From contig CAMRAC010000004.1 in NCBI GenBank assembly GCA_947039955.1, positions 47,344 through 111,343 on the forward strand: a stretch of 64,000 bases of DNA, in the 5' to 3' direction. How positions within the stretch are numbered: position 1 is the stretch's first letter; every line of letters starts with the position of its first letter. Of this stretch, positions 10,530 to 47,331 are shown piece after piece. The position numbers and the translations under genes were made by a program. This stretch comes from an uncultured Mycoplasma sp. GTDB lineage: Bacteria; Bacillota_I; Bacilli_A; Mycoplasmatales; Metamycoplasmataceae. Below the pieces are notes generated by a model. The model did not search any database. It was not told the DNA's origin and saw only the letters and a list, made by a program, of their open reading frames with translations.

Positions 10530-10590
10530 TTTTTAATTATATATGAAATATATATAATTGTTGGTTTGTTTAAGTTAAGTGGTGAATTAA

Positions 10591-11373
10591 CTAGTAAATT
10601 TTCAGGTAATTCTTCTTATAATCTAAAATGATTTCTACTTCATCATCTAATTTATCTTTTAGAAATTCATCGATACCTTCAATGAACACTTCTTCTATTT
10701 GGTGAGAAACTATTATAAAGTTTATTCCTAAGTTTTGCAAAACTATTTGTTCATTTCATTTAATATCTGATGTTATTAATAAATCACAATTATCTGTTTT
10801 GTTATTATTGATAAAATCATAAACATCACCAGTACCTGGAGCGAAATATATATTATTAATTTTTTCATCAATTGGATTAGTTCAATTAGAAATAACAAAA
10901 TCCAACTTAATATTTGTTTTAATTAAATCTACAAGTGATCCAAAAGAATTCGAATATTCCACAACACTATTAAATCTATAACGCTTAATAACTTTATTTA
11001 ATAGGTTTAATCTTTTCAATAAAAAATGATCTGTCCCCTTTATGTGAGAATCAAATGCTGTGTGTAGCGAATAAGTTGTTATGTTATGTTTGTCAAGTAA
11101 ACTAAACAGCATCTCTTTGGAAGCATCTAATTCAATAGCCTCTAATTTACTGGGAGCAAAACAAAATGGATGATGGGAAACAATTATCGAAACATTTTCT
11201 CTAATAGCCTTTAAAATGGTTTTTTTGTCCACATCTAGTGTAATAAGAATCTTTAATTGTTTTTCTTTTTCAGCAAAAAAAGAAAAACCTCCAAAATCTC
11301 AAGGTTCTTGAGAAGTAAGTGGGAATTCTGTTTCAAATAATTTAATTAGTTCGTTTTGGTTATTAATTTTCAT
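10591..11373 (-). CDS. Nif3-like dinuclear metal centre protein (YqfO/YbgI family)
   Basis: Motifs seen are ..IIVSHHPF.., ..YSLHTAFDS.. and ..APGTGD..SHQIEE. 783 nt in one frame with internal TGAs. The start overlaps the rpoD stop by 11 nt. Confidence 0.8.
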
Positions 11374-13081: not shown

Positions 13082-13084
13082 AAT

Positions 13085-14812
13085 TTATTTCCTTTGTTTT
13101 TTGGTTTTTACCTTGATTGAACTTTGTATTATTTTTGAAATAAAACTGTCATCGGGATTGTTCTCAACTGTTTTTTCTAGTTTTGTTTTGTTTTGAATTA
13201 ATTTCATGTCTAATTTATCTTTTTCTAAATTATTAATTGTTTCAATGAACTCTTCTTCAGTATTGGGTGGATTTTTCGTTTTCTCGATTTCCTTTAGTTC
13301 TTTTTCTAACTCATCATTTACGATGTAATCTTTTTCATTTTTTTTCATGATAATATATTTTGCTAACTCCATGTATTTTGAAGTTCCCAAAAATATGTCT
13401 CGAGATAAAAAAATGTCTATAAGTTTAGGGTTCTTCAACATTCCCAACAATAATCTATTAATACTAATAAATATGTAAGTACCTCTAATTTTAGTTGTTT
13501 TTGGTTCATTTGTAACAATATTTTTAGCAATTATTTTTCTAGGTGCTACTTTTGGAGCTCCTGGTTGTAAAATATTATTAATTTCATCCAGTTCAATATT
13601 CAATAATTGAGAAATTTTATTAGAATATTGCGACTTAACCATTGAGTTACATAAATTTAAGTAGTTGTTAAACTTTGTCAAAAAAGGTTTGATGTTATTT
13701 GGATTATTTATATCAACTGAATTAATTAAATATTGATAAATAAATTCAATCCCAGCCATTCTTTGATTTAACAAATACAAGAATTTTTCTTCTCCATTTT
13801 TATTAAGATATTCATCAGGATCATGTGGAGAATCATTTTTAATAACATCAACATCAATATTTGCCTTCATTAAAAGGAAGATAGATTTAATGGTTGCTTT
13901 AAGTCCAGCTTGGTCACTATCAAAGAAAAGAACTACAGAATGATTTTTTAATTTAGATGTATGAATTTCTGAAATAGATGTCCCCATTAAAGCAACAGCA
14001 TTATCAAGGCTAACTCTAGCAAAAGCGATAACATCCATAAATCCCTCAACCAAGTAAATTTCTTTTCCTGTTTCTTTTGCTCTTCAGAAGTTATAAATAA
14101 TTGCTGACTTATTAAATACTATTGAATCTCCAGAGTTTATATATTTATATACCTTCTCATCTTTATTTAAAGATCTTGAAGAGAGACCCACCACATCTCC
14201 AAAATCATTTTTAATTGGGAAAATAATTCTATCAGATATTGTTTGGTTTTCATTCTCATTAATTAATGACGCATTCATCATTGTAGAAACATTGTTATTT
14301 TTCTTAATCAGAAACTCTTTATATCCTTCAACATTCTTGGGTTTAGCATAACCAATTGAAAACATGTTTTGAATTTTTGCATCTAGATTACGATCTTTTA
14401 AAAATTGAAGAGCATTAATGTTTTCTTTAAACGTCAAGTCATAAGAAAACTTTTGTGTTATATCACTAAAAACTTTAATCATTTCTTTTTGAGTATCGTT
14501 GTATCTTGAGCTTTCAACATACTCAAAGTTTTTGTAATCAATTTCATATTTTTTAGCAAGAAAAACAACAGCTTCTTTTTTTGACATACCTTGGAATTTT
14601 TCTAAAAACGTAATTACATTTCCTGAAACTCCACAAGAAAAACATTTGAAAAATTGTTTTTCTTGAGAAACGGATAACGAAGGAGATGTATCGTTATGAA
14701 CTGTACAAATACCTTTATAGTTTTTTCCAATTTTGGAAAGATTAATAAATTCTCCAGCAACTTCAACGATGTCCGATTTCTGCAATATTTCATTAATTGT
14801 TGATGAACTCAA
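13085..14812 (-). CDS. dnaG: DNA primase
   Basis: CHC2 zinc finger (CTVHNDTSPSLSV...FKCFSCGVSGNVITF). TOPRIM region VEGFMDVIAF...LFFDSDQAG. The two track ORFs share a frame. The apparent start is TTG. Confidence 0.9.
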
Positions 14813-14822
14813 ACTAGCCCCT

Positions 14823-16187
14823 TTATTTTTTACTTATATATTTTTGAATATCTTTAATTAGAATTCTTTCTTGCTCCATAGTATCTCTATTTCTAACAGT
14901 GACCTTTTTATCTTCTAAAGAATCATAGTCAAATGTTATTGAGTAGTATGTACCAATAGAATCTTGACGTCTATATCTTTTACCTATTGAACCGGTTTCA
15001 TCAAATGATGTTGAAATATCATTTTGAACAAGGTCTAAATAAATTTCTTTTGCTTGTGGTGATAATTTCTTTACCAAGGGCAAGATGGCTACTTTGTATG
15101 GAGCAAGGTCTTTGTCTAATTTTAAAATGATACGTTCGTCACTTTCTAAAGTTTCAACTTCATAAGAATCCACTAAAACTGCTAATAGCAATCTATCAAC
15201 ACCAACAGAGGGTTCTATAACTGTGGGAATAATAAATTTGTTTGTTTCTGGAACCAAATATTTTAATTCAGTATTTGAACTTTTATTGTGTGATGATAAA
15301 TCAAAATCTTGACGATTAGAAATACCCATAACTTCTCCCCAACCAAAAGGGTAAAGGAATTCAATGTCACTTGTCCCCTTTGAATAATGAGCAAGTTCAT
15401 CTTTTTCATGAACTCTAATCATCAATGATTCTTTTTTAATTCCTAGAGATTTAATAAAATCAAATGATTTTTTAACATAGTAATTATAATCTTCTTCACT
15501 TCTTTCTTCAAAAGTAAAAAACTCTAATTCCATTTGCTCAAATTCCCTAGTTCTAAAAATAAAGTTACCAGGGGTTACTTCGTTTCTAAATGACTTTCCT
15601 ATTTGTCCAACTCCGAAAGGAAGCTTTAATCTTAAAGATCTTTGAATGTTATTGAAGTTAACAAAAATTCCTTGAGCCGTTTCAGGTCTTAAGTAAATAG
15701 AACTTTTTGAACCATCAATAACTCCTTGTGAAGTTTCAAACATTAAGTTGAATTGCTTGATACCTGTTCAATCAGTTTTATCTCCATCATACTCTTTAAC
15801 ATTTTCTTTTAAAAACATTTCTAAAAGTTCATTACTCATTCCATTGGCATTCTTTTTTGATATTTCTTCATAAATGTGATCTGCACGATATCTTTTTTGA
15901 TTAACTTTATTTTCAATTAAAGGATCAGAGAAATTAGAAATATGTCCGCTAGCTTCTCAAATTTTTGGATTAAGTAAAATCTTTGAATCAAGTCCAACAT
16001 TATTGATTTCTAAATTAACAAAGTTTTTTCATCAAGATGCTTTAATTTTATTAATTATCGCAATTCCTAAAGGACCATAATCCCAAGTATTAGAAAGTCC
16101 TCCATAAATTTCAGAGCTTTGAAATACAAATCCTGAATTTTTTAAATGATTTACAATATCCTTCATGTTTTTTTCATTATTTTTCAT
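14823..16187 (-). CDS. glyQS: Glycine--tRNA ligase (alpha2 type)
   Basis: [41 protein letters not shown]... continues to ...[14 protein letters not shown]...[28 protein letters not shown]. 1365 nt in one frame. Confidence 0.95.
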
Positions 16188-20173: not shown

Positions 20174-21466
20174 ATGAAACAAAAATATATTGATTCGGAA
20201 AACAAACCAAGTATAAATAAAAAATTAAATGTGTTCGAAACATTCTCCGGGATAGGTTCGCAGCACAAAGCCTTTAAGAACGCTTTTGATGAAAGTAAAT
20301 TTGAGATTGTGGCTACCTCGGAATGAGAAATTTACGCAATTATAGCTTATGATGCCATTCACCATGGTCCTGTAAAACAAAAGTCCTTAAATACTCTTTT
20401 AAATAGGGGGGGGGGGATTGTTTCGGTTGAAGACTTATCCACATTCCTTTCTCAATATTCTTTTTCAAAAAATGGTGAAAAAGAAACTGATATAAATAAA
20501 GTTATTAATAAAGAATTAGAACTTGCTCAAAGATTAGCGGTTGCAATGATTAGAAATAAAAATATTGGTAGTATTTTAGATTTTGATAAGATAAAAATCA
20601 GAAATAACATTAATTTATTAACTTATTCTTTTCCTTGTCAAGATTTATCAATAGCAAATATGGGGCGCGGAACCGGTATGGCTAAAGGTGCTGAAAATCG
20701 TTCAGGACTACTTTGAAAAGTGTCTAATATTTTAGAATCATACACTCCTGAAGAACTTCCTGAATTTTTGTTGTTGGAAAATGTACCCAATATGCTTTCA
20801 CAAAATCATAAAAAAGATTATGAAGAATGAGTAAATTATCTTGATTCAAAAGGTTATAAAACAGTCACAGAAATTTTGGATGCAAGACATTATGGAATTC
20901 CGCAAAGCAGAAGAAGAGTTTTTGCGATTTCTTTCAATATAAATAAATTAAATATCAATGATTTTGAAGATATTAAAACAAGGTATAAAAAACACTTAAA
21001 AGATATGGAAGATAATTTTATTTATGAAAAACCAAAAAAAGAAGTTAATAAAGTTTTAAACAAATCTTTTTTATCTCTTGATAAACATGAAGACGAAGCT
21101 TATTCTTGCTTAATGAAAGATACCCCATCTAGAGTAAAAATGGTCCAAGACAACAAAGATTTGTTAGATCCTAATTTGACTTACTTTAGAACTTTAACTA
21201 AAAAGCAGGACAGAAATCCTAATGTTGGTTTTGTTACAACTAACTTTTATAAGGAAGATTATTTAAAAGAAAGATTTATTACTCCTAGAGAAGCTTATAA
21301 AATTATGGGCTTTACAGATAAAGATTTTGAAAATACAAAAAATGATTTATATAAATTTTCAAAGGAAAAATATTATAGCCAAGCAGGAAATTCAATTGTT
21401 GTTAATGTTTTGGAAGCGATATTCAAATTTGTAATGGAGGTGTGAGATGAAAAAAATAGGAAATAA
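20174..21466 (+). CDS. DNA (cytosine-5)-methyltransferase (Dcm family)
   Basis: Motif I is VFETFSGIGSQ, motif IV is SFPCQDLS, motif VI is LLENVPN, motif VIII is QSRRRVFAIS and motif X is AGNSIVVNVL. Read with TGA as Trp, the frame is open from 20174 to TAA at 21464 (430 aa). Confidence 0.9.
20406..20416 (+). repeat. G11 homopolymer inside the methyltransferase coding sequence
   Basis: aaataGGGGGGGGGGGattg encodes N-R-G-G-G-I and is in frame in this sequence. Confidence 0.95.
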
Positions 21467-21977
21467 ATTTTCAAAGATAGGGACAAACCCGCATAAATAT
21501 GTTGAAAATTATAGATTATTATTTTTGAACATAGGCAAACAAGAAATATTAAAAATCAGGAGAGAAGATTTCTCAATAACGCACAACGGAGTAGAAGTCA
21601 AGAGTTTTGGAAGTGATGCAACATTTAGACAAAATATAGATTGTTGAGTGGGCTTAGGTCTTTTCATAAAAAAAGATGATAAACTAGTTAAAGTTTTTGA
21701 AAATATGAATGAAAGTGATTTTTATGAATATATCAGAGGAATTATATTGGTACAGTCAAACAATGAAAAAATAAATGTTTATAGAGACACAATAATAATA
21801 AAATTAATGAATTTTTTAGGGCTAGAAACTATTGAAAAATACAACCTTTCTTGCAGGACTAAATGTATAGTAAAAAAAGATATTGATGAAGAAACTGGTA
21901 AATTTGAAAAAGAATTGCTGAATGATAAAATGCTAAAAAGTATTTTGAAAATAATATGGGAGAATAAATATGAATAA
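21447..21977 (+). CDS. Hypothetical 176-aa protein (weak PD-ExK-like motif)
   Basis: The ATG at 21447 lies inside the last 20 nt of the methyltransferase gene. Track ORFs 21447-21647 and 21648-21977 are joined by one TGA. The segment ..RREDFSITHNGVEVKSF.. gives D41-x8-E50-x-K52. Confidence 0.6.
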
Positions 21978-23856
21978 ATTAACTAAAAAGATAGACGAGA
22001 AAGATTCAGATATAACCATTGACAAAGCTTTATTAATAGAGTGACTTGATATGGAAGGTAAAGTAATTATTATTCCAATTTACCAAAGAGGTTATTCATG
22101 AGAAGTTGGGCATATTGAGACATTATTTGAAGATATTGTGAACAGAATGGAAGATGATTCTTCTCACTATTTTGGAATAATTGCCGGAAAAAATATAAGT
22201 GGTTCAGGTCCGGGTAAAAAAAATATAGTCAAAATAATTGATGGTCAACAAAGATTGACTAGTTCTTTTTTATTTTTTTGTGCAATTAGGGACATTATAT
22301 TAGAAGAAGAAATAGGCAATATTATTGATTATAAAACTTTATCAAAAATATTAAAAATAAATTCAAAAGAAAAAATTGAAGAATACTTCTATAATCCTGG
22401 AGGTCAAACAGACTTAAATGAAGCATTTATAAAAATTTTAAAAGGTGATTTAAAAGATATAAAGAAGAAGAATAATTTTTATGAAAATTATTTGAAATTT
22501 AAAGAATTAATTCAAAATAAACAATTTAATTTTGAAGAATTAAATCAATTAATGAACACATTTTTATATAAATTTGAAATTGCTAACATATTTTTTAAAA
22601 CAGATAAAATTTCAAATAAGAAAGAAATGGAAATTTTTGAAAACTTAAATTCAAAAGGCAAGGAATTAAGTTCTGAAGATTTAATAAAAAACTTTATTTT
22701 TAATCTTTGTTCCGATGAATTACTTGTAAAACACGATGAAGATCAAATAACTCTTATTTTTCACTCATCTATTACAGATGAATTGGGAGAAGGTAAATTG
22801 ACTGGTAAATTTTACAAAAGCTTAATCCAATATAATATAGGTACTGAGTTCCAGGACAATAGACAAATTCAATTAACTGAATTCAAAAAAGTGGTTGAAA
22901 ATATATTTAATATTGATATGAATGAAGAAATAAAGACAATAAAAGAATATAAAAAATTATTAAATGAAATTAAAGATTATGCAAAAATTTTCTATGATAT
23001 TTCTAAAGAAAATAGAAAAAAAATAGTTTCTTGATTGGGTGTGGAAAAAATAATCATCCTTTGTAATGAAGAAAGTAAATTAAATCTATTTGCCGGATTA
23101 ACATATTTGATGTTTGAATTTTTTAAAAGACAAGATAAATATGATGTCAACGTCCGTCTTCCTGAAGCAACTCAAAAAGATATTAAAAGAATTTACCTAA
23201 CAATTATGAAAGCAATAACTAAAAACTGAGTTATTACAAGGCGTGGTGATTCTGGTTTTAGAAGGATGATTTTAAAATCTATATATTTAGTAAGACAAGA
23301 TTTTTTGAATGATTTAAAAATTACACTTCAAACAATAGGAGAGAAATTAAAAAAATATATTGCTGACGGATTAAATAGTGATGAAGAATTTAGGTCATCT
23401 ATTATAAATAATAGTGATGCACACAAATCAATTACATGACTTCTTATATTAACAGAATGAGAAATGAGTGATTGATTAAATTCTGGACAATATATTGATT
23501 ATAAATCTCCTTCTATTGAACATATATTACCTAAAAACTCTGACCTTTGAGAAGAAGAAATGATACAAAATTCAGAATATAATATGGAAGAATTTAGAAA
23601 AAACAAAGAAAGAAATTTAGAACAATTTGGTAATTATTTTATACTAAACAAAGAGAAGAACTCCTCTGTAGGCAATATTATTTTTTCAAAAAAACAAGAA
23701 GGGTATAAAACAAACACATCACCTTTATATAACAATCCTAAATATCCTGATATTGATATTTCTAGAAAAACATCATGAGGATTTAAAGATATTCAAAAAC
23801 GTACTGACAAACTTATAAACTATATTTGTGAAAGCGTTATTAAAGACAACAATTAA
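21970..23856 (+). CDS. DUF262 + DUF1524 protein (GmrSD-like type IV restriction nuclease family)
   Basis: N-terminal motifs are IIPIYQRGYSW, KIIDGQQRLTS and FENLNSKGKELSSEDLIKN. C-terminal motifs are SIEHILPKN...FGNYFILNKEKNSSVGN. Four track fragments share one frame (1887 nt, 628 aa) with only TGA between them. Confidence 0.85.
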
Positions 23857-31066: not shown

Positions 31067-31143
31067 TGGGGTAGATAACGGGATTCGAACCCGCGCATAA
31101 CGGCACCACAAGCCGCAGTGTTAACCACTTCACCATATCTACC
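31067..31143 (-). tRNA. tRNA-His (anticodon GTG) with encoded G-1 and CCA
   Basis: Hand-folded cloverleaf. The acceptor GTAGATA/TATCTAC carries an extra 5' G opposite C73. The anticodon stem is GCGGC/GCCGT with loop TTGTGGT. The T arm is GCGGG-TTCGAAT-CCCGT. Confidence 0.9.
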
Positions 31144-31176: not shown

Positions 31177-31479
31177 TTAATGTCTTCCTTGATAATTCAT
31201 CAAAATATTATAAGGTTTTATATCAAACAACCCTACAATTGTTTCATTTACGTACTTTTTAACTAAATTTACTGTTGCAAAAAGGTCAGAGCTTTTACTT
31301 AAAGTAAAGTCAAAAGATATTTTGACATTCTTTCCTTTTCTAACAATAACGATTTCAGGTTCACCAGCAACTTTAACATCTAAAATTTTTGAAGAAATTA
31401 AGTTAACTATATCTAAAAAGACATTTTTGTGAATGTTAGTGGTTTGATTAATATTATTTTTAATATTGATGTATTCCAT
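31177..31479 (-). CDS. Small Asp23/Gls24-like protein (tentative)
   Basis: 100 aa. ..VFLDIVNLISSKILDV.., its size and its position downstream of efp recall Asp23-family proteins. This is weak evidence. Confidence 0.4.
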   Translation of the reverse strand: MEYINIKNNINQTTNIHKNVFLDIVNLISSKILDVKVAGEPEIVIVRKGKNVKISFDFTLSKSSDLFATVNLVKKYVNETIVGLFDIKPYNILMNYQGRH

Positions 31480-35645: not shown

Positions 35646-36314
35646 TTATTCGGTTACTCTTAAACCTATTTGAGTTAATTGTAATATTTCATTTTCTTCA
35701 CTAACTAGTCTACTGAAAACAATATTGATTCCACTAAATAATTTAATAACATCATCTTCAGATTCATTGTCATAAATCATTCTTGTAGAGTGTAAAACAT
35801 CGAATGAAATATTTTTTAAGTTAACTAAATAATTAAAGATGTTTCTTCCCAAACCAATTTTTACTTCTGGTCTATTTAAAATTAATCATAAGTTTGCATC
35901 AGTAATTTCAAATAAATCCTTTAAAAGGTTTTCTAAAATTCCTCTTAATAAAGCAGAAGCTGATCTAGGTGATTCTTTATATATTCTTCTAGCTTCATTA
36001 TACATTTCTAGATTTTTACCTGTAATATCTTTATTAGGCATCGGAGCATCGGAAACTTGAGGAAAAATAATTCTACTTTCAAGGAGTTTTAATCTGTTTC
36101 CAAATTGATCAACTGAATGATCTGAAGTTCAAATAATGTTTTTACTACAAGTTAAACATCTTGATTGAGAATAAAGAACTTTAACAGGACCTGTTTCTGT
36201 TTGTTTTGTTTCAGAAAATTGTAATTCTGTTCTTGAAGAAAAAGTTGCTGGTACATCACAAATAGGACAAGTAAAATAGTTGGATGAAATTTGCGGTTTG
36301 ATGTAATGACTCAT
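35646..36314 (-). CDS. Zinc-ribbon + DUF4145-like protein
   Basis: The N-terminus has CPIC...CLTC. The C-terminal segment ..EARRIYKESPRSASALLRGILENLLKDL...LVNLKNISFDVLHS resembles DUF4145. Two track fragments are joined by two TGAs (669 nt). Confidence 0.5.
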
Positions 36315-36351
36315 ATATTCCTTGCTTAGTTTCTTTAATTATAACAACATT

Positions 36352-37113
36352 TTATTTTTTGTTCTTATAGATTATTTCATTTTTTTCATTTACAGCTTTT
36401 AAAAGAGTTAAATCTGTGTGTGAATTTGATTGTTGTATTAAGGAATGCAAATCTTTTGGTAAACAACTTCCTGAAAATCCTCTTTTCTCTTCAAAGACAA
36501 AAGAGTGACTTCTTCCTATTCTTTCATCGGCAAGTCATATTTCTCTTGAAGAATTATAATCCACATTTAATGAGTTTGCAATATCATACATTTCATTGCA
36601 AAAAGTTACCTTAGTTGCTAAAAAACAATTTTCCATGTATTTAGCAAACTCAACTTCTCTTGCATTACCAATATGGATTTTAACATTTGAATTTATAATC
36701 GTTTTATAAGCTTCTATAGCGTGATTAACACCTTTTGTGTTACCTCCAAAAGACAATCAACTCCTACCATTCAAATTACTATATGGGTGATCAACTGTTT
36801 CTCCATAATATTCAGGTTGAAATATAATTTCTTTATTATATTTTTTAATCATTTCATCTGTGAATCCAATGTAAATGGTTGAACGTATTACTATTGTTTT
36901 GACTTTTAGTTTTTCAATCAAAGATTCTACAATAGAAGTGTCACAACTACCATCTTTGTTCTCTGGTGTAGGAACACATAAAAAAACCAAGTCCGACTTG
37001 TTAACTTCTTCAAATGTTCCTATTTTTAAATTTTTATCATAAATGTAGGCGTCAACAAATAATTTGCTCATCGCTGTTCCTACATGACCTTTTCCAATGA
37101 TCCCTATTTTCAT
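36352..37113 (-). CDS. UDP-glucose/GDP-mannose dehydrogenase-family protein, short (253 aa)
   Basis: The Rossmann motif is MKIGIIGKGHVGTAM. The central domain reads ..EFAKYMENCFLATKVTFCNEM.. and the catalytic-Cys motif is GFSGSCLPKD. The protein ends about 25 aa later, so no C-terminal UDP-binding domain is present. Confidence 0.7.
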
Positions 37114-38102
37114 ACTAAAATTTCCTTTTCTAATTTGTTTATTATATTTATATTCATAAATTCTTTTATTTTATCAATAACGTTTGATTCGTCTTTGGTA
37201 ATATTTATTATATCTATTTTTTTCAATAATCCTTTTATGAAATAAAATAACTCTTTGGTGTGAAGGATTATTGCATCTTGATTTCACTCATCATCAACTC
37301 TTGACATATAAAGATTTAAACCACTTATATATTTGATTACGCTTTTTCAAGAAAGTTGAATTGTTTTGTTTTCTCGATAATGATTTACAAACATTGGTAT
37401 TTTGGCAAACTTAAATTCTTTGGCTAACATTGCAGTTCTATAAGAATCATATCAGGGTAAAGAGTCTTCATTATATGATTCTCATTCAAACTCACCATTC
37501 AAAGCTTCATTATTAAAATAAACTGTGGCTCCACCAGTTGTGAAATCATTTTCATTTACAACATTAGTGAATTCATTTATATCTCTAGAAAAAGACCTTC
37601 CCCTCAATATATCTTTCAACTCTTTGTATACTTGATTAGAGTTAATTGCAGAGTAAGTAGAGGAGTTGAAATCCGAATCATCAAAAAAGGGTTTTTGAGA
37701 ATGAGAATATATTTCTAACTTGTGATTTAGAAAATCATTTAATGAAGAAGCTAATGTGTAAAAAGCGGGTATAGGTGGATCCAACTTATAATACATAGAT
37801 ATAAAATCATACCTTTCTTTATATGTTAGTAATTCATCAACAAACTCATTTTCTGGTAACTGTATGTCACTGTCTAAAATTAAATACATATCCGCCTTGT
37901 ATTTCTTAACTTCATTTAATAATGAATGTCTTGAATTTTTCATATTAGATACTTCATTAATGATATGTGTTGCTTCAACTTCTTTATTAGTATTAGCAAT
38001 CGAAATAACATTATTACTGAACTTTTTTAATTTCCTTATATTGTCAATAAAATTAATGTGATTTTCTTCGTTCATAATTGTTGTTGCCAAAACTATTTTC
38101 AT
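37104..38102 (-). CDS. Putative GT-A-fold glycosyltransferase (332 aa)
   Basis: MKIVLATTIMNEE... leads to ...MYLILDSDIQLP, which holds a DxD motif. The track stop at 37482 is TGA. I checked that the frame stays open to the TAG at 37104. Confidence 0.45.
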
Positions 38103-38842
38103 GTTATCACTCCTGGAATATTGTGTAGTTTGTCATGCCTATCATTGATTTTTTCAACATCATTTACATCCACATATCCATCAAAGTGCATGTAAAAATT
38201 TCGCAAATCATTAAGTCTATGCTTATCATTAGATATTCTTTCTCTATAAGAATCTTTTTGATAAATAACCAAAGATTCTTCTATGACTGCAACCTTCACT
38301 TCAGGATGTGATAAAAGAGCGATATTCAACACCCTATCAGTTGAAGAGTTAATGTGTTTTGACATCATTCCTGACTCCAAACACATATCTAAGTTAAAAA
38401 CTTTATTAGATCCTTGGACACCTATGTTACCGATTATAAAATTCTTAACTTTCATATCTTTTAGAGTAAATTTATATTCATCAATTATTTCGTTATTGTC
38501 TTTAACTTCCATTCAACAAGTTACAAAGTTATTTCCTTTTTGAATTAAGTTAAATGCTTTTTCAATATAGGTTTCTTTTCATAAATCATCATCATCAACA
38601 GTTGCTATATATAAATTTTCATTAGGATATAAATCCTTGATTCTCACCAATGATTGATTAGTGTTACGAGCCAATCCTTTTTTATAAGGATTTACCAAAA
38701 CTTTATATTCACTTGCAAAGTCTTTTTCTGATGCTATTATTATTTCATCAACTTTTTTAGTTTGACTTTCAATAGATGAAATTGTTTTTGAAATATCTCT
38801 ATTGCCAGCAGTTACAATAAGCGCTATTATTTTCTTATTCAT
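38099..38842 (-). CDS. Family-2 glycosyltransferase
   Basis: MNKKIIALIVTAGNRDISKTISSIESQT...IIIASE...ATVDDDDLW.. shows the GT2 N-terminal signature with a DDD motif. Two fragments share one frame (744 nt). Confidence 0.7.
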
Positions 38843-40197
38843 CTTGTTGCTCCATCAATGAATTCCAATTCCGGAGATAGTTCCTTAACTCTTTCATGCT
38901 TGATGAATTTTTTATTTGGAATAATAGAGCTGCACTCGTGCACTAAATTATTATGCATTTCATAAACAAACTTCTTACCACCTTCTTGTTTTATAAGTCT
39001 ATTCATAGTATCGACATTTTCGCATGTGTAAACAACATCATATGTGTCAATATTTTGCGAAACTGATAAATCATGACAAATCATCGGCATTATCCGATAT
39101 TTTTCAACAACGAAGTTATAAAATCTCTCATATTTCTTATCATTAAAAAGATCTGCCTCTCCCTCTAACCTTTTAGACCTTATAATCATTCTATGATTAT
39201 CTTTTTGTTGATTTCTAACCAAAAAATAAACATCCCTAATAATTCCTTTTTTAAAATCATCATTATCAGTTTTAACAAATGAATTTCCAAAATCATTGTA
39301 AATGGTTTCAAAAAAGGGGGAATCTTTAAATTTTATTTTTCCATAGTTAATTACTTTATTATCATCAATAAATACATCAATAAGTCTTTGTCTTATTAGC
39401 AATCTAGCTATTTGTACGAACGATAAATCACTGACTGGCGAAACAATATTATTATAAACGAAAATTTTATCTTCACCATCAATTTTGATCTTGACATTCA
39501 ATCGGCTATCTTTATAAAATTCTTCAATATAATCATCAGGAGAGTGAGTTACATTATTTCTGTCATAAATTTCTTTCAAATTATTTGAGGGCTTAAAATC
39601 CTTTTTAATTATTTTATTAATTTTACTATAATCTTCACTCCAATACAAAGCACCTTCATTACCTCCATTTATAAACCTTGGTTTACCAATTATTTTTTTA
39701 TAAAATGATTTAACTTTTGTATTTTTTGTAAAAACTTCATCCAACGGTTTATTACCTCTAGTTTCTTTCATTAATAAAAATCACAGTCACACTTCAAGAT
39801 ATTTTTCCACATGATGTAAATGATTTTTATCATAGAAAGAATATGTGGGTATTCTAATGTATTCAATATCATGAACAATTATATATTTATTTTTAATTTC
39901 AATTGATTTTATATCACTATAAACATCTAAATTTTTTTTATCTTCTCCGTGATAAATTATAATTTTGCTTATTTTTTCATCTAGGCGTTGAACATCTCTT
40001 CTTAGGTTTAATATTCAAAAATATTGATTCATCAATATTGATGCCCCAAATATAGATGCAAAGTTTATTTTGTGACCAGATTTCTGTCCATTTTTATATT
40101 CAAGGAACTTGTAAGGAGATAGAACTATATCAAAACTTTCTATGCTTTTGTCTATGTCAATATAAATATTGTTTGATAAATTAAGCAGGATCGTCAT
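38839..40197 (-). CDS. Hypothetical protein of about 453 aa (start uncertain: 40197, 40227 or 40260)
   Basis: Track ORFs 40015-40260 and 38839-39771 are in the same frame. I found no in-frame TAA or TAG between them, only TGA. No family was recognised. Confidence 0.55.
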
Positions 40198-41164
40198 ATT
40201 TATGCCCCATATATTTCTTTTTTTCATCCATATATTTTTGCGCTTCTGGAGATAGTTCACTATTCAATATACGTTTTTCTACTACATCTATTCTTCTTGA
40301 TTTTATTGGTTCTACCTTTAATTGATTATTGGTTCATAAATTAATTTTATTAATATTCATTTGATACAAAATATCTCCAGGAATTTCAAATGATCTATTT
40401 TCCGATTTACCAGCTATAGAATTCATTGCATTATAAGTATCCATTCCAGTGTCATTAGTAAGTTTGTAAGCTTTTATTTTGTTAAATAAACCCAAACCCC
40501 TACCTTCTTCATTTGCATAAATTAACATAGTATTTTTTTCTTTATACAACATCTTCATAAAAAAATCTAATTGCATTTTACAATCACAATGAATTGAATA
40601 AAATACCTCCGAAGTTTGGCATTGATGATGAATTCTAACATTCACTCGTTCATTTACATTTAAATCATTATAAACAATAAGAAATTCTTTGTTATTAGAA
40701 GGGCACTTTGCTACCTTCACATTCAAAACGCCAAATTGTGTTTTCAATGTTGTTTCCTGACTATATTGAAGAGCTGAATAAAAATCAATCTTAAATATTA
40801 TTCCGTTTGGAACTATGTTGTATTCAGCTATTATTGATGAATCTTTTATTTTTGTTCAGAACAATTTATTTTTTAATAAAATACCTTCATGATTAAAATT
40901 ATCTTTAATCGGTTTATCATCTATCACTATATTGAATTTAACATCAATAATGTTACAATTTTTATCAACTAAATCATCAATATACTTGATAGTTCGTAAA
41001 AGCATTAAGAAATCATCTCCTTCTACCAGAACTTGATCATTATTTCATCTAAACTTATATGTTTGATATTTAGCGTTTGTTTTTCCTTCAAATTCAATAA
41101 TTATTTTTTTAAATTCATTACCGAAATTTATTTGATTAGAAAATAAGTTTATATATAAAATCAT
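40181..41164 (-). CDS. GTP cyclohydrolase II (RibA)-like domain with an extra N-terminal domain of about 135 aa
   Basis: VNVRIHHQCQTSEVFYSIHCDCKMQL...ANEEGRGLGLFNKIKAYKLTNDTGMDTYNAMN....W TNNQLKV parallels E. coli RibA RVHSECLTGD..RCDCG.QL...EGRGIGLLNKIRAY...DTV.AN...LLTNNP. The three Zn-ligand Cys residues are retained. 984 nt, and the frame was checked. Confidence 0.75.
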
Positions 41165-41234
41165 TTAAAATATTATACAACAAAAAAAATAAATCATTCA
41201 ACACTTACTCTTTGAACTTCAAAAAAATAATAGT

Positions 41235-42281
41235 TTAGTTACTTGAAGGAAGTTTTTTTACTTTGTTAGTAAAAATTTGTTCTGGAGTTATTCCGCCATT
41301 GGTTTCAGTTGTTAATCCACCTGGGAAAGTTGGGATATTTGCTCCAAAATTATTAAGAGCAAAAGCTTCTAAACCAATGCTTTTTATTTGACTAGGTGTT
41401 GGTCATACTATTGATGATATATTGTTTTGTAAGAATGCGTCAATTCCAATACTTTCCAAGTTTATCAAATCATGTAAATCTAATTCTCCAGATAATTTAT
41501 TATTATAAAAAGCACTATTACCAATTGATTTAATTTTGGAAAAGTTATTTCAAAGAATAGATGTAATGGAATTTTTCCCAAAAGCACTTGGTCCAATATT
41601 TTCTAACGAACTCAAAGAAACAAAGCTCAATTCTGTAAGTTCGTTTGTATTGAATGCCGCAGTACCAATAGATTTAATCTTATTTTCTCTTTCAGGTCAA
41701 TAAATTTTTGAAATTGAATTTTGTCCAAAAGAATAATCAGAAATAATTTCAAGATTAATTAAACCTCTTAAATCAACAGAAGTAAGTCCTATACTAGAAA
41801 AAGCACCTTGCTCAATGACTTTTAACTTACTTAATCCACTTAAATTAAGATCAATATTTAGTAATTTTGGTAAGTCGAAACCAAATGCTCAACTACCAAT
41901 ATATTCCAAGTTTGTTAAATGCGATAAATCTCAAGGAACAGAGGTTTCTCCTGTGTTCGCAACAGGAGAAACTATATTCTGAAAAGCTCAACTCCCTATT
42001 TTTACTAATGTTTTAGGCAAAGTTAGTCCGTTGATTTGTTGATCCGCAAATGCAGCATTAGCAATTTCTGTAATCTTAACTCCATTATATTCTTCTTTAA
42101 TTTCTAATTTTTCAGGGTGAGTTCCTTCATCGGCATAACCCATAACAACACCTTTTGAACTTATTTCAAGACCTTCAGCTTCAAAATAAGTAGTTGTTTC
42201 ATTTGAACTACATGATATGGTAATTAATGGAATTATTCCAATCGGTAATAATGCTAATGGTAATAGTTTTTTAGTATTCAT
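41235..42281 (-). CDS. BspA-like leucine-rich-repeat lipoprotein, copy 1
   Basis: AGGAG lies 8 nt before the ATG at 42281. MNTKKLLPLALLPIGIIPLITISCSS carries a lipobox. Repeats follow of the type L..L..IG..AF....L (for example LSHLTNLEYIGSW AFG, LSSLENIGPSAFG). Confidence 0.85.
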
Positions 42282-42557
42282 TTTATTTCTCCTTAACACT
42301 TACTCTTTGATTTCTTAAACTAAATAGTTTTAGTTAGTTGGAGGAAGCTTTTTTACTTTGTTAGTAAAAATTTGTTCTGGGGTTATTCCGCCATTGGTTT
42401 CAGTTGTTAATCCGTCTGGGAAAGTTGGGATATTTAGACCAAAGTTATTAACTGCAAAAGCACCTAAACCAATGCTGTTTATTTGACTTGGGGTTGGTCA
42501 TTGAATTGATGATATATCATTAAATCTAAATGAGTTAATTCCAATACTTTTTAAATT
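42201..42557. repeat. 357-bp block nearly identical to 43446-43802
   Basis: Hand alignment shows 2 mismatches. The block spans one copy's signal-peptide coding region, the intergenic spacer, and the last roughly 230 nt of the upstream copy. Confidence 0.9.
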
Positions 42558-43526
42558 GATTAAAGTTGATAAATTCAACTCTCCAGTAATTGTGTTAGAT
42601 TCAAATGCAGCCTCACCTATAGATGTAACTTTATTATCAATAGGTCATTTGATTGATGTTATTTGATTATGAGCAAACACATTTTTATCAATTTTTTCCA
42701 AATTTATTAAGTCGTGTAAATCTAATTCTCCAGATAATTTATTTTCATAAAATGCTCCATCACCAATTGTTTTGATTTTAGAAAAATTATTTCAAAGAAT
42801 AGATGTGATTAAATTTCCAGCAAAAGCACTAGAACCTATACTTTCTAGCAAATCAAGTGAAACAAAATTTAATTCTGTAAGTTGGTTTCTAAGAAAAGCT
42901 GCAGAACCAATAGATTTAATTTTATTATCTTCTTCAGGTCAATAAATTTTTGAAATTAAATTGTCAGAAAAAGTCCATTCTTTTATCTCTTCAAGATTAA
43001 TCAAACCTCTTAAATCAACAGAAGTAAGTCCTATGCCTGAAAAAGCACTATTATTAATTGCTTTTAATTTACTCAATCCACTTAAATCAAGATCAAGATT
43101 TAATTTTTTTGGATTAATAACTCCAAAACTAAATGCTGAATTACCAATATATTCTAGGTTTGTTAAATGTGATAAATCTCAAGGCAAGGGAGCTTCTCCG
43201 GTGTTTGCAACAGGAGATTCTATATTTTGAAAAGCTCAATTCCCTATTTTTACTAATGTTTTTGGCAAGATTAATCCATTAATCTTTTCATCCGAAAATG
43301 CATCAGAATGAATTTCTGTAATAGTAACGCCATTATATTCTTCTTTAATTTCTAGTGGTCCAACATGGTTTTTAGATTCTATAAACCCATATACCACACC
43401 TTTATAATCTATTTCAAGGCCTTCAGCTTCAAAAGTACCTGTTTGATTTGAACTACATGATATGGTAATTAATGGAATTATTCCAATTGGTAATAATGCT
43501 AATGGTAATAATTTTTTAGTATTCAT
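42330..43526 (-). CDS. BspA-like leucine-rich-repeat lipoprotein, copy 2
   Basis: It has the same signal peptide and LRR pattern as copy 1. The frame is open from 43526 to TAA at 42330 with TGA read as Trp. Confidence 0.85.
42831..43033. repeat. 203-bp block identical to 44076-44278
   Basis: Hand alignment found no mismatch. The block is internal LRR coding sequence of copies 2 and 3. Confidence 0.85.
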
Positions 43527-43802
43527 TTTATTTCTCCTTAACACTTACTCTTTGATTTCTTAAACTAAATAGTTTTAGTTAGTTGGAGGAAGCTTTTTTA
43601 CTTTGTTAGTAAAAATTTGTTCTGGGGTTATTCCGCCATTGGTTTCAGTTGTTAATCCGTCTGGGAAAGTTGGGATATTTAGACCAAAGTTATTAACTGC
43701 AAAAGCACCTAAACCAATGCTGTTTATTTGACTTGGGGTTGGTCATTGAATTGATGATATATCATTAAATCTAAATGAGTTAATTCCAATACTTTTTAAA
43801 TT
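43446..43802. repeat. Partner of 42201-42557
   Basis: See 42201-42557. Confidence 0.9.
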
Positions 43803-44777
43803 TGTTAAAGCTAATAAATTTAATTCCCCAGCAATTGCATTAGATTCAAAGGCAGACTCACCTATAGATGAAATTTTACTATTAATAGGTCATATTATTG
43901 ATGATATTTTATTTTTAGAAAATACACCTTCTTCAACACTTTCCAAGTTTATCAAATCATGTAAATCTAATTCTCCAAATAATTCATTAGCGGCAAAGGC
44001 GCTCTTTCCAATTGTTTTAATTTTGGAAAAGTTATTCCAAAGAATAGATGTAATGGAATTTCCTGCAAAAGCATTAGAACCTATACTTTCTAGCAAATCA
44101 AGTGAAACAAAATTTAATTCTGTAAGTTGGTTTCTAAGAAAAGCTGCAGAACCAATAGATTTAATTTTATTATCTTCTTCAGGTCAATAAATTTTTGAAA
44201 TTAAATTGTCAGAAAAAGTCCATTCTTTTATCTCTTCAAGATTAATCAAACCTCTTAAATCAACAGAAGTAAGTCCTAAACCAGAAAAAACACTATCATC
44301 AATAACTTTTAATTTGCTTAATCCACTTAAATTAAGATCAAGATTTAATTTTTTTGCATTATAGCTTCCACGGTCAAAAACACCTCTACCAATGTATTCT
44401 AGATTTGTTAAATGTGATAAATCTCAAGGAACAGAAGTTTCTCCTGTGTTAGCAACAGGAGATTTTATGCCTTCAAAAGCTCAACTCGCTATTTTCACTA
44501 ATGTTTTAGGTAAAATTAAACCTTCTATTTGCTCGCCTCGAAAAGCAGATTGAGCAATTTTCGTAATAATAACACCATTATATTCTTCTTTAATTTCAAG
44601 TGGTCCAATGTGTGTGTTTTTTGAAACAAAACCCATTATTTCACCATCAGACCCTATTTTTAAACCTTCCGCTTCAAATGTATATATGTTTTCTGGTTGT
44701 GTTGAACATGATATAGTTATCAATGGAATAATTCCAATCGGTAATAATGCTAATGGCAATAGTTTTTTAGTATTCAT
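43575..44777 (-). CDS. BspA-like leucine-rich-repeat lipoprotein, copy 3
   Basis: It has the same signal peptide and LRR pattern as copies 1 and 2. The ATG at 44777 lies 1 nt after the stop of the upstream 850-aa gene. Confidence 0.85.
44076..44278. repeat. Partner of 42831-43033
   Basis: See 42831-43033. Confidence 0.85.
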
Positions 44778-44778
44778 T

Positions 44779-47331
44779 TTATTTCTCCTTAACACTTATT
44801 CTCTGAGCTTCTAATTTGATTATGTCTCTTAGATATAATCAAGCATCTTTATAAGTTAAAAAATGGTGTGTTTTATTATTATAACCTAATTCATATATAA
44901 AATTTGTTTCAAAATCTAACAATGTATATGTTTCATTGTCATTTTTATAATAAATTTTATTAGGATCATTTTTAACAATCAATGTACGATAAATATTATC
45001 TAAAATTGTTTGTTCAGAATCATACATAGCATCTGAAGTTGTTTCCATTGCTAAATCATCACTTAATTGAATTCCAGGATTAATAACATTGCCAAATAAG
45101 TCATAAATTATAATAACTTTAGCTGGATTAATTTTATTACTTGTTAACTTAACAGATTCCAGTTCTGGCGTATTATAAATTATTTTTTTATTATCACTAG
45201 TGCTAGATAAAGATTCATTAAAGTCATATACCAAAGAAATGTATTCTCCATAATGCAATTCTGATGTTTTTCTATTTATTCCTGAAGCAACAGGATCTGT
45301 TAAAACCAAAATATTATTTTCATTATCTATCAATTTATTTTTAATGTTTTCAGGCAATACATTTGAATATTTTGTTTTTAACTCACTTAAATTATCATTA
45401 TAAGAACTAAGAGCATAAACAAGATTATCATATTTATGTGGGACTTCATCTTTTGTAGAAGTCAAGGTTCCTTGATGTTCTGTTTCTGTAAAAGAAAATA
45501 ATTTGTCTGCCATTATCTTTGTTTTTACAAAAGCGTTATTGCTAGAAATATTTTTACCATCTCCTGAAATATTATTTGAAATATTTGATAAATTTTCTGA
45601 ATTATAAGTTTCATAAAATTTATCTAAATATTGTTTGTAAAAAAATGTTTCTGGTAATGCAAAATTTTCAAACACAAAAGAATCATTAATTTTAAAAATA
45701 GGACTTTTGTTATATGTCAAAAAGTAATTCATTTTTTTATATGTTAATAGAAACTGATCTATTATAAATTTATTATTATCAATTGCTTTATACTCATTAT
45801 CATATTGATTTTTTATATCTCTGAAAATAAAACTAAGTTTTTCAACCATTTTTAATTCATTATTAGAACTATATTTATTATATTCAACATTAAAATATTT
45901 AGAATTAATTTCACTAAACATCATTGTATCTGTCATTGATTCAATAATATTGTTTTTAAATTGTTCCTCAATTAGTGTGGTTTCAATTTGCTTGGTTGAA
46001 GTTTCTGGTTTTCATTTATCCATCAATTTTATTTTTATTGATTCTACAAATTTTGCTTCATTTTCTAATTGAAAATTAACGTCAAAATCTATTTGATTTC
46101 CTTTTTTTCCATTTACAGAGTGACTTCCTGGTTGCAATATTTGTGTGTTTGTATTTGTAACAGTCCAAGGTCCATCATCCCCTGTAGAAAAAAGTTTAAA
46201 TTTTGCTGTTTTTCTAAGGAAATTTGTAAAGATTAAATTATCTGCCTGTTTGACAGGGCCTGCATACTGAACTACTCCCTCTACACCATTTTCTTTTATT
46301 CATGTTTTTCTATTTAAAAAAACATCAAATTTATTAAGATTTGCATAATCTACCTCTTTAAAAGTCATTGTGTCTAATCTTTCTCTACCTTTAACAGTCT
46401 TTGTAGTCAAGTCAGGAAATTCTGTTCCAGAAATTTTTTCTAAATTATATGCAAGATCATCATGAGTGTAATTTAATTTCACTGTTGCTTTAAAGACACT
46501 TTCCATAAAAGTTTCTGTCATAGCTGTCGCAAAATCATCAGTAATTTCATTATAAAAATCTGAAATATTTTTTGTAAATAAATTATTTAACCATGAGGTA
46601 TCTGAAAGAGCTACAAAATTGCCATCATCTTTGTTTTTTGCAATATTTAGCATAGGCATCATCCCAAAAGTATTATTTTTGTTATTAGGGTCTTTAACTT
46701 GCTCTTTTGCATTTCTTAAAGTTATTTCTTTCATTTTATTAATATCATCTTTATTTAAAGGATTTATTTTAACAGTTGTATTTTTTTCTTCATCATAAAC
46801 TTCATAGAAAACAGTTTCATCAACCTTGATACCCTTAAGGATTTCTCTTTGTGCTTCAGAGTATGAAGAGTGTAAAACACCTTTGGTATCTTGATATTTG
46901 TATTTGACAAGTCCTTCATTAACAAAAGATTTTTTTGCTTTGTTAAAATCTTGTTCATAACCACCAAAGGCATTGACATAAGCTGAAGAAATTTTGTTTT
47001 GATCAAATTTCTTTAGTTCATTAATATTTAATTGATTGGTTTGATGGTCAAAAATTGCATTTCCAGCATCTCCGTAATATAAATCATCATTAATATATTT
47101 GTTATTATTAACTAATTCATTAGTAATGTCGTCCAATGAGTCGTAATACTTGTTATTAAATAAATATTTAAACTCATTGTTGCCATTATTGTTGGCATTA
47201 AGGGCACTTTCTTCTTGATTAATGATTGAAACCATCGAACCTTGAGCAGCAACTACAGAAATAGCTGCAACAATAGAAGAAGTAAAGAGTAATCCTGAAC
47301 CTATTAGTTTAAATTTGTTTTTATTTTTCAT
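44779..47331 (-). CDS. Large membrane-anchored/secreted protein, 850 aa (unknown family)
   Basis: Track ORFs 46300-47331 and 44839-45936 lie in one frame. I translated 45937-46303 and 44779-44841 codon by codon and found only TGA. The N-terminus MKNKNKFKLIGSGLLFTSSIVAAISVVAAQG is a signal or anchor with no lipobox. Confidence 0.75.

Follow-up and report, generated by a model that had tools for sequence, protein, structure and literature searches.

GTP cyclohydrolase I initiates the 7-deazaguanine (Dpd) systems, and kinases and glycosyltransferases act in the hypermodification of phage DNA. In faba bean, the GTP cyclohydrolase II (GCH II) VC1 initiates a pyrimidine glycoside pathway, that of vicine (bioRxiv 10.1101/2020.02.26.966523). 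Here we describe a five-gene cassette, g1 to g5, which couples a GCH II to a predicted protein-kinase-like enzyme, a family-2 glycosyltransferase (GT2), an orphan protein with a DxD motif and a shortened relative of UDP-glucose dehydrogenase. It lies in a stretch of 64,000 nt, hereafter the window, from an uncultured Mycoplasma sp. (assembly GCA_947039955.1, contig CAMRAC010000004.1, positions 47,344 to 111,343). A literature search for GCH II together with glycosyltransferases, anti-phage functions or defence islands, or for a GTP cyclohydrolase of Mycoplasma mobile, found no account of this combination. New are two orphan families (g2 and g4) and an unprecedented combination of genes; known are the superfamilies of all recognisable domains, and a sixth gene next to the cassette, g6, is a new member of a characterised family. 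We assign a probability of about 0.4 to our reading that g1 to g5 form a cytoplasmic pathway decorating a GTP-derived pyrimidine nucleotide, possibly in the context of biological conflict.

Gene models in the window, which has a GC content of about 27%, were built with genetic code 4 (Mycoplasma, TGA = Trp). Reading with table 11 splits the region into many short open reading frames (ORFs), which were dropped because code 4 leaves six ORFs whole, each with two to five in-frame TGA codons. These six intact minus-strand ORFs lie essentially where the initial annotation had placed six genes, with the exception of the ends of g2 and g3, for which TGA had been taken as stop (38839 and 38099) and which code 4 moves to 38827 and 38093. 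The start of g2 was set by the conserved N-terminus MxILxNLS. The genes and their domains are as follows.

40181-41164, minus strand: g1, 327 aa
40769-41164, minus strand: N-terminal domain of g1 (residues 1 to ~132), outside the PF00925 match, with the motif LLRT-x-K-x-IDD
40181-40768, minus strand: GTP cyclohydrolase II domain of g1 (residues ~133-327), PF00925 E = 2.6e-34
38827-40197, minus strand: g2, 456 aa
39748-40197, minus strand: predicted N-terminal alpha/beta domain of g2 (residues 1 to ~150), from the AlphaFold2 model
39088-39705, minus strand: predicted protein-kinase-like domain of g2 (residues ~165-370), from the AlphaFold2 model and Foldseek
38830-39087, minus strand: predicted C-terminal beta-rich Cys3His domain of g2 (residues 371-456), from the AlphaFold2 model and invariant residues
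38093-38842, minus strand: g3, 249 aa, soluble family-2 glycosyltransferase, PF00535 E = 4.5e-7, DDDD (DxD) at residues 83-86
37104-38102, minus strand: g4, 332 aa, orphan protein with invariant D77-x-D79
36352-37113, minus strand: g5, 253 aa, UDP-glucose-dehydrogenase-like, PF00984 E = 1.8e-20, PF03721 E = 3.7e-12
35646-36314, minus strand: g6, 222 aa, RAZR/PD-T7-4 homologue by PADLOC match, with a Cys4 zinc ribbon and a DUF4145/HEPN-like domain

Under code 4 neighbouring genes overlap by 17 nt (g1/g2), 16 nt (g2/g3), 10 nt (g3/g4) and 10 nt (g4/g5). The sequence ATGA at 38839-38842 (g2/g3), 38099-38102 (g3/g4) and 37110-37113 (g4/g5), previously described as a stop/start junction, is kept in all lineages carrying the cassette (see below). 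Its TGA is a Trp codon in code 4, and each upstream ORF extends by 2-4 codons, ending in the tails W-I-R-K or W-K in all lineages. These junctions form stop/start overlaps only if read with code 11, which may hint at a non-Mollicute origin; alternatively, the overlapping start codon may simply keep them from changing. Purifying selection acts on all six genes, with ratios of nonsynonymous to synonymous substitution rates (dN/dS) of 0.07-0.28 in comparison to the orthologues of contig L001, which are 57-84% identical. Identical or near-identical contigs are present in several metagenome-assembled genomes. The IMG/JGI annotation of the same contig (36352-40197) used the standard code, and the genes appear there as fragments named 'hypothetical protein', including P0016 (310 aa) and P0025 (70 aa) derived from g2 and P0052 (206 aa) derived from g4.

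On the contigs of g1 and g2 relatives, g1 to g5 occur in the same order, with junctions that overlap or lie within 2 nt, in eight divergent Mollicute lineages, between which g5 identity does not exceed 66%; g2 is in the extreme case only ~29% identical to its window counterpart. The cassette was not found elsewhere among 1.84 billion protein representatives, genomes of the Genome Taxonomy Database (GTDB) or viral contigs; only five relatives are present among the GTDB species representatives, and the g2 and g4 families occur only within this cassette. A phage origin was rejected, as no g2 relative was detected on viral contigs. The initial annotation had proposed a real, coupled and unexplained multi-gene unit and a test of its neighbourhood conservation. 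This description holds for the five genes that keep their order in all eight lineages. It does not extend to the DUF4145 gene g6, which lies outside the block, is restricted to close relatives and has a -10 element of its own, so that the unit is better described as five genes plus one. A six-gene operon was rejected, g6 being missing from all but the closest relatives. The lineages and the surroundings of the cassette are:

Lineage (i): window, L001, L004, L005 and L020; RAZR homologue immediately downstream
Lineage (ii): L002, L006 (Ca. Mycoplasma liparidae, hadal snailfish gut symbiont), L007, L008 and L019; defence island
Lineage (iii): L009; defence island
Lineage (iv): L010 (Mycoplasma mobile 163K, AE017308); housekeeping genes
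Lineage (v): L018; housekeeping genes
Lineage (vi): L012; defence island
Lineage (vii): L013 and L014; short contigs, uninformative
Lineage (viii): L015; short contig, uninformative

The RibA-like assignment of g1 was confirmed by matches above cut-off to PF00925 (118.6 bits, cut-off 23.3) and NF001591 (151.6 bits, cut-off 148), and the score for the equivalog model TIGR00505 was below its cut-off (155.2 versus 205.85 bits). In the PDB, the g1 family profile matched 4rl4 (H. pylori, E = 1.9e-37) and 2bz0 (E. coli, E = 3.4e-34). The zinc-binding cysteine triad C182/C193/C195 and the residues R257 (E. coli R128), Y233 (E. coli Y105), R222 and K283 are invariant in seven divergent orthologues; the E. 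coli numbering follows a sequence that we take to be the RibA reference, which is equal in length to 2bz0 and agrees with the PDB alignments. Thus, the GCH II domain of g1 keeps the complete catalytic residue set and its active site is predicted to be intact. The preceding ~130 residues gave no family match, nor did the family profile match any PDB sequence, and they include the invariant residues K32, T35, T58, D63, D64, F124 and F128. Kinship with the N-terminal domain of g2 was rejected, and the g1 domain is unlike any other domain of the cassette, so that by these comparisons it is a novel domain. The family of g1-type proteins carrying it comprises only ~10 clusters. Rfam searches upstream of g1 in the window and at six other loci revealed neither an FMN riboswitch nor another one. 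The neighbours of g1 are always g2 to g5, g1 overlapping g2 or lying within 2 nt of it in each of the eight lineages. A group of 341-aa GCH II proteins (P0011-15, L003) was set aside as not belonging to the cassette.

The second gene, formerly listed as a protein of about 453 aa with unknown function, encodes a predicted kinase-fold enzyme, which changes the logic of the pathway. At the sequence level g2 matched neither Pfam, NCBIfam or PHROG families nor PDB sequences, and kinase families (Pfam Pkinase, APH, RIO1 and others) were matched in none of 16 members at E <= 5. Of the 1.84 billion protein representatives, only 12 were recovered as relatives when the profile was searched exhaustively. 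A first AlphaFold model from seven sequences was discarded (mean predicted local distance difference test score, pLDDT, of 58.6). AlphaFold2 prediction on the orthologue P0017 with an alignment of 16 sequences gave a model with a pLDDT of 88.7 and a predicted template-modelling score (pTM) of 0.89. In a Foldseek search of the PDB this model yielded 48 matches at E <= 1e-3, essentially all of them kinases, among them CK1delta (6.7e-5, probability 1.0), IRE1, ULK2, Wee1 and WbdD, at TM-scores on the target of 0.34-0.40; the match to WbdD has the longest aligned span. In a viral structure library the model matched Ser/Thr and RIO-like kinases. Concordantly, the motifs D279-N-K281-V-I-N284 and D302-F-G304, 23 residues apart and following a predicted alphaE helix, are invariant in the 16 sequences, as are G179-N-E-G182 in the beta1-beta2 hairpin, R321-D322, R336 and R343. 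In the comparison with the beta3 Lys and alphaC Glu of kinases, K192 is invariant only in the closer seven sequences and no invariant Glu was seen. Judged by the structure model, g2 is a new protein-kinase-like family. Its C-terminal domain has the invariant residues C374, H375, C392 and C422, which probably constitute a zinc site. In L012, g2 and g3 are fused in a single protein of 707 aa, which ties the kinase to the GT2.

For g3 the GT2 assignment was confirmed, if weakly, by the PF00535 score (30.4 bits, cut-off 23.3); further matches were TuaG (5e-5) and the glycosyltransferase family phrog_14775 (1.7e-7), and D83-D86 is invariant. The GT-A-like label given earlier to g4 was not sustained. 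None of seven g4 members matched Pfam, no PDB sequence was matched at E <= 10, and the NCBIfam matches to PgfS/ArnC were marginal (E ~0.05-0.06). Alignment of the g4 and g3 profiles with hhalign gave E = 0.046-0.13 around the DxD motif at a probability of ~1%. A GT-A-like fold is possible for g4. The family comprises 14 clusters, all within this cassette, and the M. mobile copy is named 'hypothetical protein'. Two further proposals for g4, as the source of the UDP-binding domain missing from g5 and as a paralogue of g3, were not supported by Pfam scans and hhalign.

The description of g5 as a short protein of the UDP-sugar dehydrogenase family was borne out by PF00984, PF03721 and the alignment to the S. 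pyogenes enzyme 1dli, which covers residues 1-18 and 49-289 of 402; the TIGR03026 score (131.5 bits) was below the cut-off of 189.8. The protein keeps GxGxxG and the equivalents of Cys260, Lys204, Asn208 and Asp264 of 1dli, and GFSGSCLPKD and AKYMENCFLATK were seen in the alignment. The C-terminal UDP/GDP-binding domain (PF03720) gave no match, the protein ending at the equivalent of 1dli residue 289. In all lineages g5 is 251-258 aa long and devoid of the UDP-binding domain, and its dN/dS of 0.07 is the lowest of the genes. This architecture common to all eight lineages argues that g5 is a distinct, functional, shortened subfamily and not a pseudogene. Retention of the catalytic residues without the UDP-binding domain argues for a non-canonical substrate.

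Searches for membrane helices (hydrophobic 19-mers above 1.6 on the Kyte-Doolittle scale) were negative for g1 to g5 in sequences of eight lineages, and Pfam scans detected no initiating transferase, flippase, ABC exporter, polymerase or membrane synthase in the block. This agrees with the earlier remark that the locus lacks a recognisable sugar nucleotidyltransferase, flippase and polymerase, and implies that an exported polysaccharide made by g1 to g5 alone is unlikely. Nor did we find an isolated set of genes with ordinary orthologues in capsule loci: the block recurs, the g2 and g4 families are confined to it and it encodes no membrane protein. Ca. M. liparidae has a soluble protein published as 'hyaluronan synthase', which was rejected as a counterpart of g3 or g4; it has 310 aa, with DGSTD/DxDD at other positions.

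In the reading that we favour, g1 would most likely convert GTP by imidazole-ring opening into the diaminopyrimidine ribotide DARPP, with release of formate and pyrophosphate. Since the zinc site for ring opening is strictly conserved, we infer that g1 runs the full GCH II reaction and not just guanylyl transfer. The kinase g2, the GT2 g3, the DxD orphan g4 and the dehydrogenase g5 would then phosphorylate, glycosylate and oxidise DARPP or a closely linked cytoplasmic acceptor, which most economically would be the pyrimidine ribotide made from GTP, or else one of its glycosides. What results would be a pyrimidine nucleotide or glycoside that derives from GTP and carries sugar, neither an exported polysaccharide nor riboflavin. 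Given the repeated arrival of the cassette in defence islands, this product may plausibly serve phage or inter-microbial conflict, e.g. as an analogue of nucleotides or by feeding nucleic-acid modification; defence, competition and host interaction are all conceivable uses. Gene structure, conservation of the block, the domain assignments of all genes but g4, the kept catalytic residues, solubility, the missing riboswitch and the genomic contexts are results of the analysis; from them we infer in which order the reactions run, what the acceptor and the product are, and any part in defence. Hypothesis (a) of the initial annotation, that the RibA-like protein supplies a guanylylated precursor, is possible and disfavoured, as the invariant zinc triad serves imidazole-ring opening and not guanylyl transfer.

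Defence-island contexts, with the RAZR homologue of lineage (i) counted among them, account for four of the eight lineages, which is suggestive. The flanks in L002, L006 and L008 of lineage (ii) encode uracil-DNA glycosylase (UDG), a KAP NTPase, a C5-methyltransferase with a MutH/Sau3AI-type nuclease, two GmrSD proteins and an AAA_15/21 ATPase. L009 carries a phage-type integrase, a Fic/Doc protein, GmrSD and a methyltransferase, and L012 an HNH protein, a helicase, two N6/N4 methyltransferases, a GIY-YIG protein and a type I restriction-modification (R-M) system. In M. mobile and L018 the cassette is flanked by the housekeeping genes ychF, L1/L11 and tsaBD. Genes with a possible bearing on sugar metabolism or transport were also found: a GalE-like epimerase/dehydratase of the short-chain dehydrogenase/reductase (SDR) family (326 aa) after g5 in the L012 locus (cassette region 10001-14915), ABC-2-type transporter genes 3-6 kb upstream of the cassette in L002, L006 and L008, an ABC ATPase downstream in L013, and TagD-like cytidylyltransferases upstream in L015. 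We take M. mobile to belong to the hominis group. Ca. M. liparidae was placed by its authors in the pneumoniae group. The patchy spread over distant groups and the varied insertion sites, one of them by an integrase, indicate that the cassette is horizontally mobile. In L005, g1 (9034-10017) has acquired a nonsense mutation at codon 33 (TAC to TAA); it differs from L004 at 5 nt over 984 nt, and g2 to g5 are intact. This recent mutation implies that the cassette is dispensable.

UDG is linked to the cassette in three genomes of lineage (ii), at 9246-9917 in L002, 8261-8932 in L008 and 15187-15858 in L006; in L002 and L008 the gene is on the same strand, 84 nt upstream of the cassette, and in L006 it is downstream. 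Upstream of UDG and the cassette, L008 encodes an AAA-ATPase (308 aa) and an S8 subtilase (735 aa) at 5044-8170, which we take to be the same domain pair as in the ietAS defence system. The window itself contains on the plus strand (20174-23856) an overlapping trio of a C5 DNA methyltransferase (430 aa, PF00145 E = 1.5e-50), a 176-aa protein and a protein of the GmrSD family (628 aa). In L009 a homologous trio (40, 30 and 26% identity) is found 1.5 kb away from the cassette, and by this comparison the trio looks like a conserved module.

Several observations weigh against a conflict-related nucleotide pathway. Its logic is deduced from domain content, and the DxKxxN loop of g2 is of the protein-Ser/Thr-kinase type, so that the substrate could be a protein rather than a metabolite. 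Two of the eight contexts are housekeeping (M. mobile L010 and L018) and two are uninformative (L013 and L015). Small Mollicute genomes pool all their accessory genes in few variable regions, so that the association with defence genes may be co-location only. Searches of g1 to g5 against PADLOC-DB 2.0 gave no match at E <= 1 save a chance match of g2 to Cas11a (0.028), and viral contigs held no copy of the cassette. Moreover, the GalE-like SDR in L012, the ABC-2-type transporter in L002, L006 and L008 and the ABC ATPase in L013 equally fit a conventional UDP-sugar/glycan pathway.

Such a pathway is the first alternative, and we consider it unlikely. Here g2 to g5 would assemble a uronic-acid-containing glycan or glycolipid in the cytoplasm, of teichuronic- or hyaluronan-like type, the kinase would phosphorylate or cap it as WbdD caps the E. 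coli O9a O-antigen, export would proceed by unlinked or nearby ABC-2 transporters, and g1 would activate a sugar phosphate via a covalent GMP-enzyme or act as a regulator. The weak resemblance of g3 to TuaG, the proximity of g5 to UDP-glucose 6-dehydrogenases (AglM, TuaD, 1dli) and the long aligned span of the WbdD kinase-methyltransferase on the g2 model are consistent with this, as are the GalE-like SDR after g5 in L012, the ABC-2-type transporters and ABC ATPase near the cassette and the TagD-like cytidylyltransferases of L015. In addition, a separate soluble GT2 is present in Ca. M. liparidae and uses, in vitro, UDP-glucuronate (UDP-GlcA; PMC12036578), implying that a supply of UDP-GlcA is needed there. 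However, no lineage of the cassette includes a membrane protein, initiating phosphotransferase, flippase or polymerase, g5 is devoid of the UDP-binding domain throughout, and no transporter adjoins the cassette in the window, L009, L010, L012 and L018. The invariant zinc triad of g1 is not needed for guanylyl transfer, and the coupling of GCH II to a glycan pathway in all eight lineages is left unexplained.

Returning to the decorated pyrimidine nucleotide, a bolder version would make the cassette an immune or conflict module that turns GTP, by GCH II and subsequent phosphorylation, glycosylation and oxidation, into a non-canonical, sugar-bearing pyrimidine nucleotide acting as an antiviral analogue or as a hypermodification donor. 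It would be a horizontally spread GCH-II counterpart of the GCH-I-based 7-deazaguanine systems. We regard this version as rather unlikely.

A further alternative, to which we give little weight, is that the cassette synthesises a glycosylated or phosphorylated base or nucleotide and places it on the DNA or RNA of its own cell, where it would serve as an epigenetic or protective mark, by a logic like that of the Dpd systems or of phage DNA hypermodification by kinases and glycosyltransferases. The recurrent siting among R-M genes, GmrSD type IV enzymes and methyltransferases would fit, and so would UDG, which is directly upstream and possibly co-transcribed in L002 and L008 and nearby in L006; all enzymes are cytoplasmic, and the Cys3His module of g2 could bind nucleic acid. 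However, conserved companions of the cassette do not include a recognisable base-exchange enzyme of the tRNA-guanine transglycosylase (TGT)/DpdA type, a DNA-binding domain, a hydroxymethylase or a partner nuclease. To our knowledge, GCH II products do not occur as nucleic-acid constituents. The housekeeping contexts in M. mobile and L018 and the absence from viral contigs likewise speak against a marking function.

The ordinary annotation, in which g1 is RibA for riboflavin and g2 to g5 are an unrelated neighbouring sugar-metabolism operon, is very improbable. It draws on the NCBIfam RibA subfamily score above cut-off, on the catalytic residues, all of which are kept, and on the genome paper of Ca. 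M. liparidae, which counts a stand-alone ribA in a complete riboflavin pathway (PMC6965317). This 'ribA' (L006 8851-9840) is probably the cassette g1 orthologue. The same genome has a canonical ribD-E-BA-H cluster including ribBA, and its authors note that riboflavin synthase is otherwise unreported in Mollicutes (PMC6965317), a group to which the cassette carrier M. mobile also belongs. Furthermore, g1 is never found without g2 to g5, has the cassette-specific N-terminal domain and scores below the TIGR00505 cut-off. Since it is coupled to g2 in every lineage, carries this domain, has no FMN riboswitch at the seven loci, co-occurs with ribBA and is present in M. mobile, g1 is probably no ordinary riboflavin gene.

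Defence enzymes that deplete nucleotides form an established class, and an abortive-infection effector in which g1 destroys GTP on infection, with the other genes as sensor or regulator, would accord with the defence-island contexts and a regulatory role of the novel N-terminal domain, but we judge it highly doubtful because it leaves four conserved enzymes with intact kinase, GT2 and dehydrogenase motifs unexplained, shows no PADLOC similarity and meets housekeeping contexts in two lineages. Both this explanation and the plain RibA are weak since neither accounts for the strict five-gene linkage. Hypothesis (b) of the initial annotation, a conflict system with GTP conversion or depletion as effector, gains circumstantial support from the four defence-island contexts, and its simple depletion form is weakened for the reasons just given; neither this nor hypothesis (a) is established.

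Transcription of the cassette and the relation of g6 to it were judged from two elements:

41172-41201, minus strand: promoter-like element TTGAAT-18-TATAAT, 10/12 match, in the 70-nt gap upstream of g1
36315-36351, minus strand: intergenic gap of 37 nt between g5 and g6, with the extended -10 element TGTTATAAT and the ribosome-binding site AAGGAA

The former is the probable start of the g1 to g5 transcript, and g6 probably has its own promoter in the latter. Terminator-like sites were found neither between g5 and g6 nor between the other genes, so that read-through into g6 is also possible. The zinc-ribbon/DUF4145 assignment of g6 was sharpened by the PADLOC model PDLC04109 (PD-T7-4), which matched residues 1-213 with E = 1.2e-27; other matches were phrog_1305 (6.7e-13), the PDB entry 9y9c 'DUF4145 domain-containing protein' (E = 6e-4) and Pfam DUF4145 (only E = 0.026). 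PD-T7-4 is RAZR, which combines a Cys4 zinc ribbon with a DUF4145/HEPN RNase, assembles around phage portal or recombinase rings and, as a stand-alone single-gene system, causes abortive infection (PMC13017515, Nature 2026). The zinc-ribbon cysteines of g6 are C16/C19/C53/C56. At 35790-35816 it has K167-x7-H175 where RAZR has Arg/His (R146/H154 in E. coli), in an alignment that is extrapolated there and not secure; Lys instead of Arg eight positions before His175 is found in the window and two orthologues. Given Lys at the expected position of the catalytic Arg, RNase activity of g6 is uncertain. Besides the window, g6 was found only in the close relatives L001, L004, L005 and L020. This restriction, the -10 element of its own and the homology to a single-gene defence system argue that g6 is an independent neighbour outside the conserved cassette, homologous to a separate single-gene abortive-infection system.

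On the other side of the cassette, three tandem paralogous lipoprotein genes (41235-44795, minus strand) encode near-identical signal peptides (MLRRNKMNTKKLLPLALLPIGIIPLITISCS...) and BspA-type leucine-rich repeats. Their orthologues in L001 and L020 match PF13306 LRR_5, and sister species have five or six copies upstream of the cassette. An Rfam scan of the 64-kb window matched only a single tRNA gene (31070-31142, minus strand), located between ruvA and a small ORF (31177-31479).

In genomes of 0.4-0.8 Mb each retained 5-kb operon is costly, and a cassette that stays intact in eight lineages and moved between distant groups is thus expected to have a selectable role. This is surprising for Mollicute biology. 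Two of its families have no relatives outside the cassette, a kinase family seen only via deep-alignment structure prediction and an orphan DxD protein; together with a GCH II carrying a new domain and a dehydrogenase without its nucleotide-sugar handle, they point to a GTP-scaffold chemistry undescribed in bacteria. A correction of annotation also follows, as the stand-alone 'ribA' of fish-associated mycoplasmas, which has been counted towards riboflavin provision to the host, is probably not a riboflavin gene. The hosts of the cassette include the fish pathogen M. mobile and fish-gut symbionts, and M. mobile 163K, a cultured strain with the cassette, makes the question directly testable. Moreover, through the RAZR homologue g6 and the defence islands near the cassette, the range of characterised anti-phage systems comes to include Mollicutes.

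Compared to teichuronic-acid and ABC-transporter-dependent polysaccharide loci, the cassette shares a GT2 and an enzyme of the UDP-glucose dehydrogenase family, and with O9a-type loci also a predicted counterpart of the capping kinase, whereas it has no initiating transferase, transporter, polymerase or membrane protein and includes a GCH II. With the UDP-glucose 6-dehydrogenases HasB (1dli), TuaD and AglM, g5 has in common GxGxxG for NAD binding, the central domain and the four catalytic residues Cys, Lys, Asn and Asp, but lacks the whole C-terminal UDP-binding domain and ~30 residues of the N-domain. The g2 model shares with WbdD, RIO and CK1-like minimal kinases the bilobal fold, the D-x-K-x-x-N loop and DFG, and possibly a Gly-rich hairpin, without membership of these families at the sequence level and at modest TM-scores of 0.34-0.40. 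WbdD is itself a kinase acting in a glycan pathway; g2 differs from it in its own predicted N-terminal alpha/beta and C-terminal Cys3His domains and in the absence of a methyltransferase domain. RAZR/PD-T7-4 and g6 agree in the full-length model match, in the Cys4 zinc ribbon and in having an equally large DUF4145/HEPN-like C-domain, but g6 comes from a Mollicute and Lys apparently replaces the catalytic HEPN Arg. The vicine/convicine pathway of faba bean and, in our reading, the cassette have in common a GCH II recruited away from riboflavin synthesis, in the plant with a glycosylated aminopyrimidine as the end point of the VC1 pathway. The likeness is one of logic only, as the plant genes are unlinked, the plant glycosyltransferases are GT-B UDP-glycosyltransferases and neither a kinase nor a uronic-acid-type dehydrogenase takes part. 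Finally, compared to the GTP cyclohydrolase II RibA (2bz0, 4rl4), the alignment takes in the last 195 residues of g1 over their whole length, with the zinc Cys triad kept along with the counterparts of Arg128, Tyr105, Arg94 and Lys154, whereas g1 does not adjoin ribD/E/H or an FMN riboswitch, falls below the TIGR00505 equivalog cut-off, adds a conserved N-terminal domain of ~130 residues and is always coupled to a predicted kinase, putative glycosyltransferases and a dehydrogenase.

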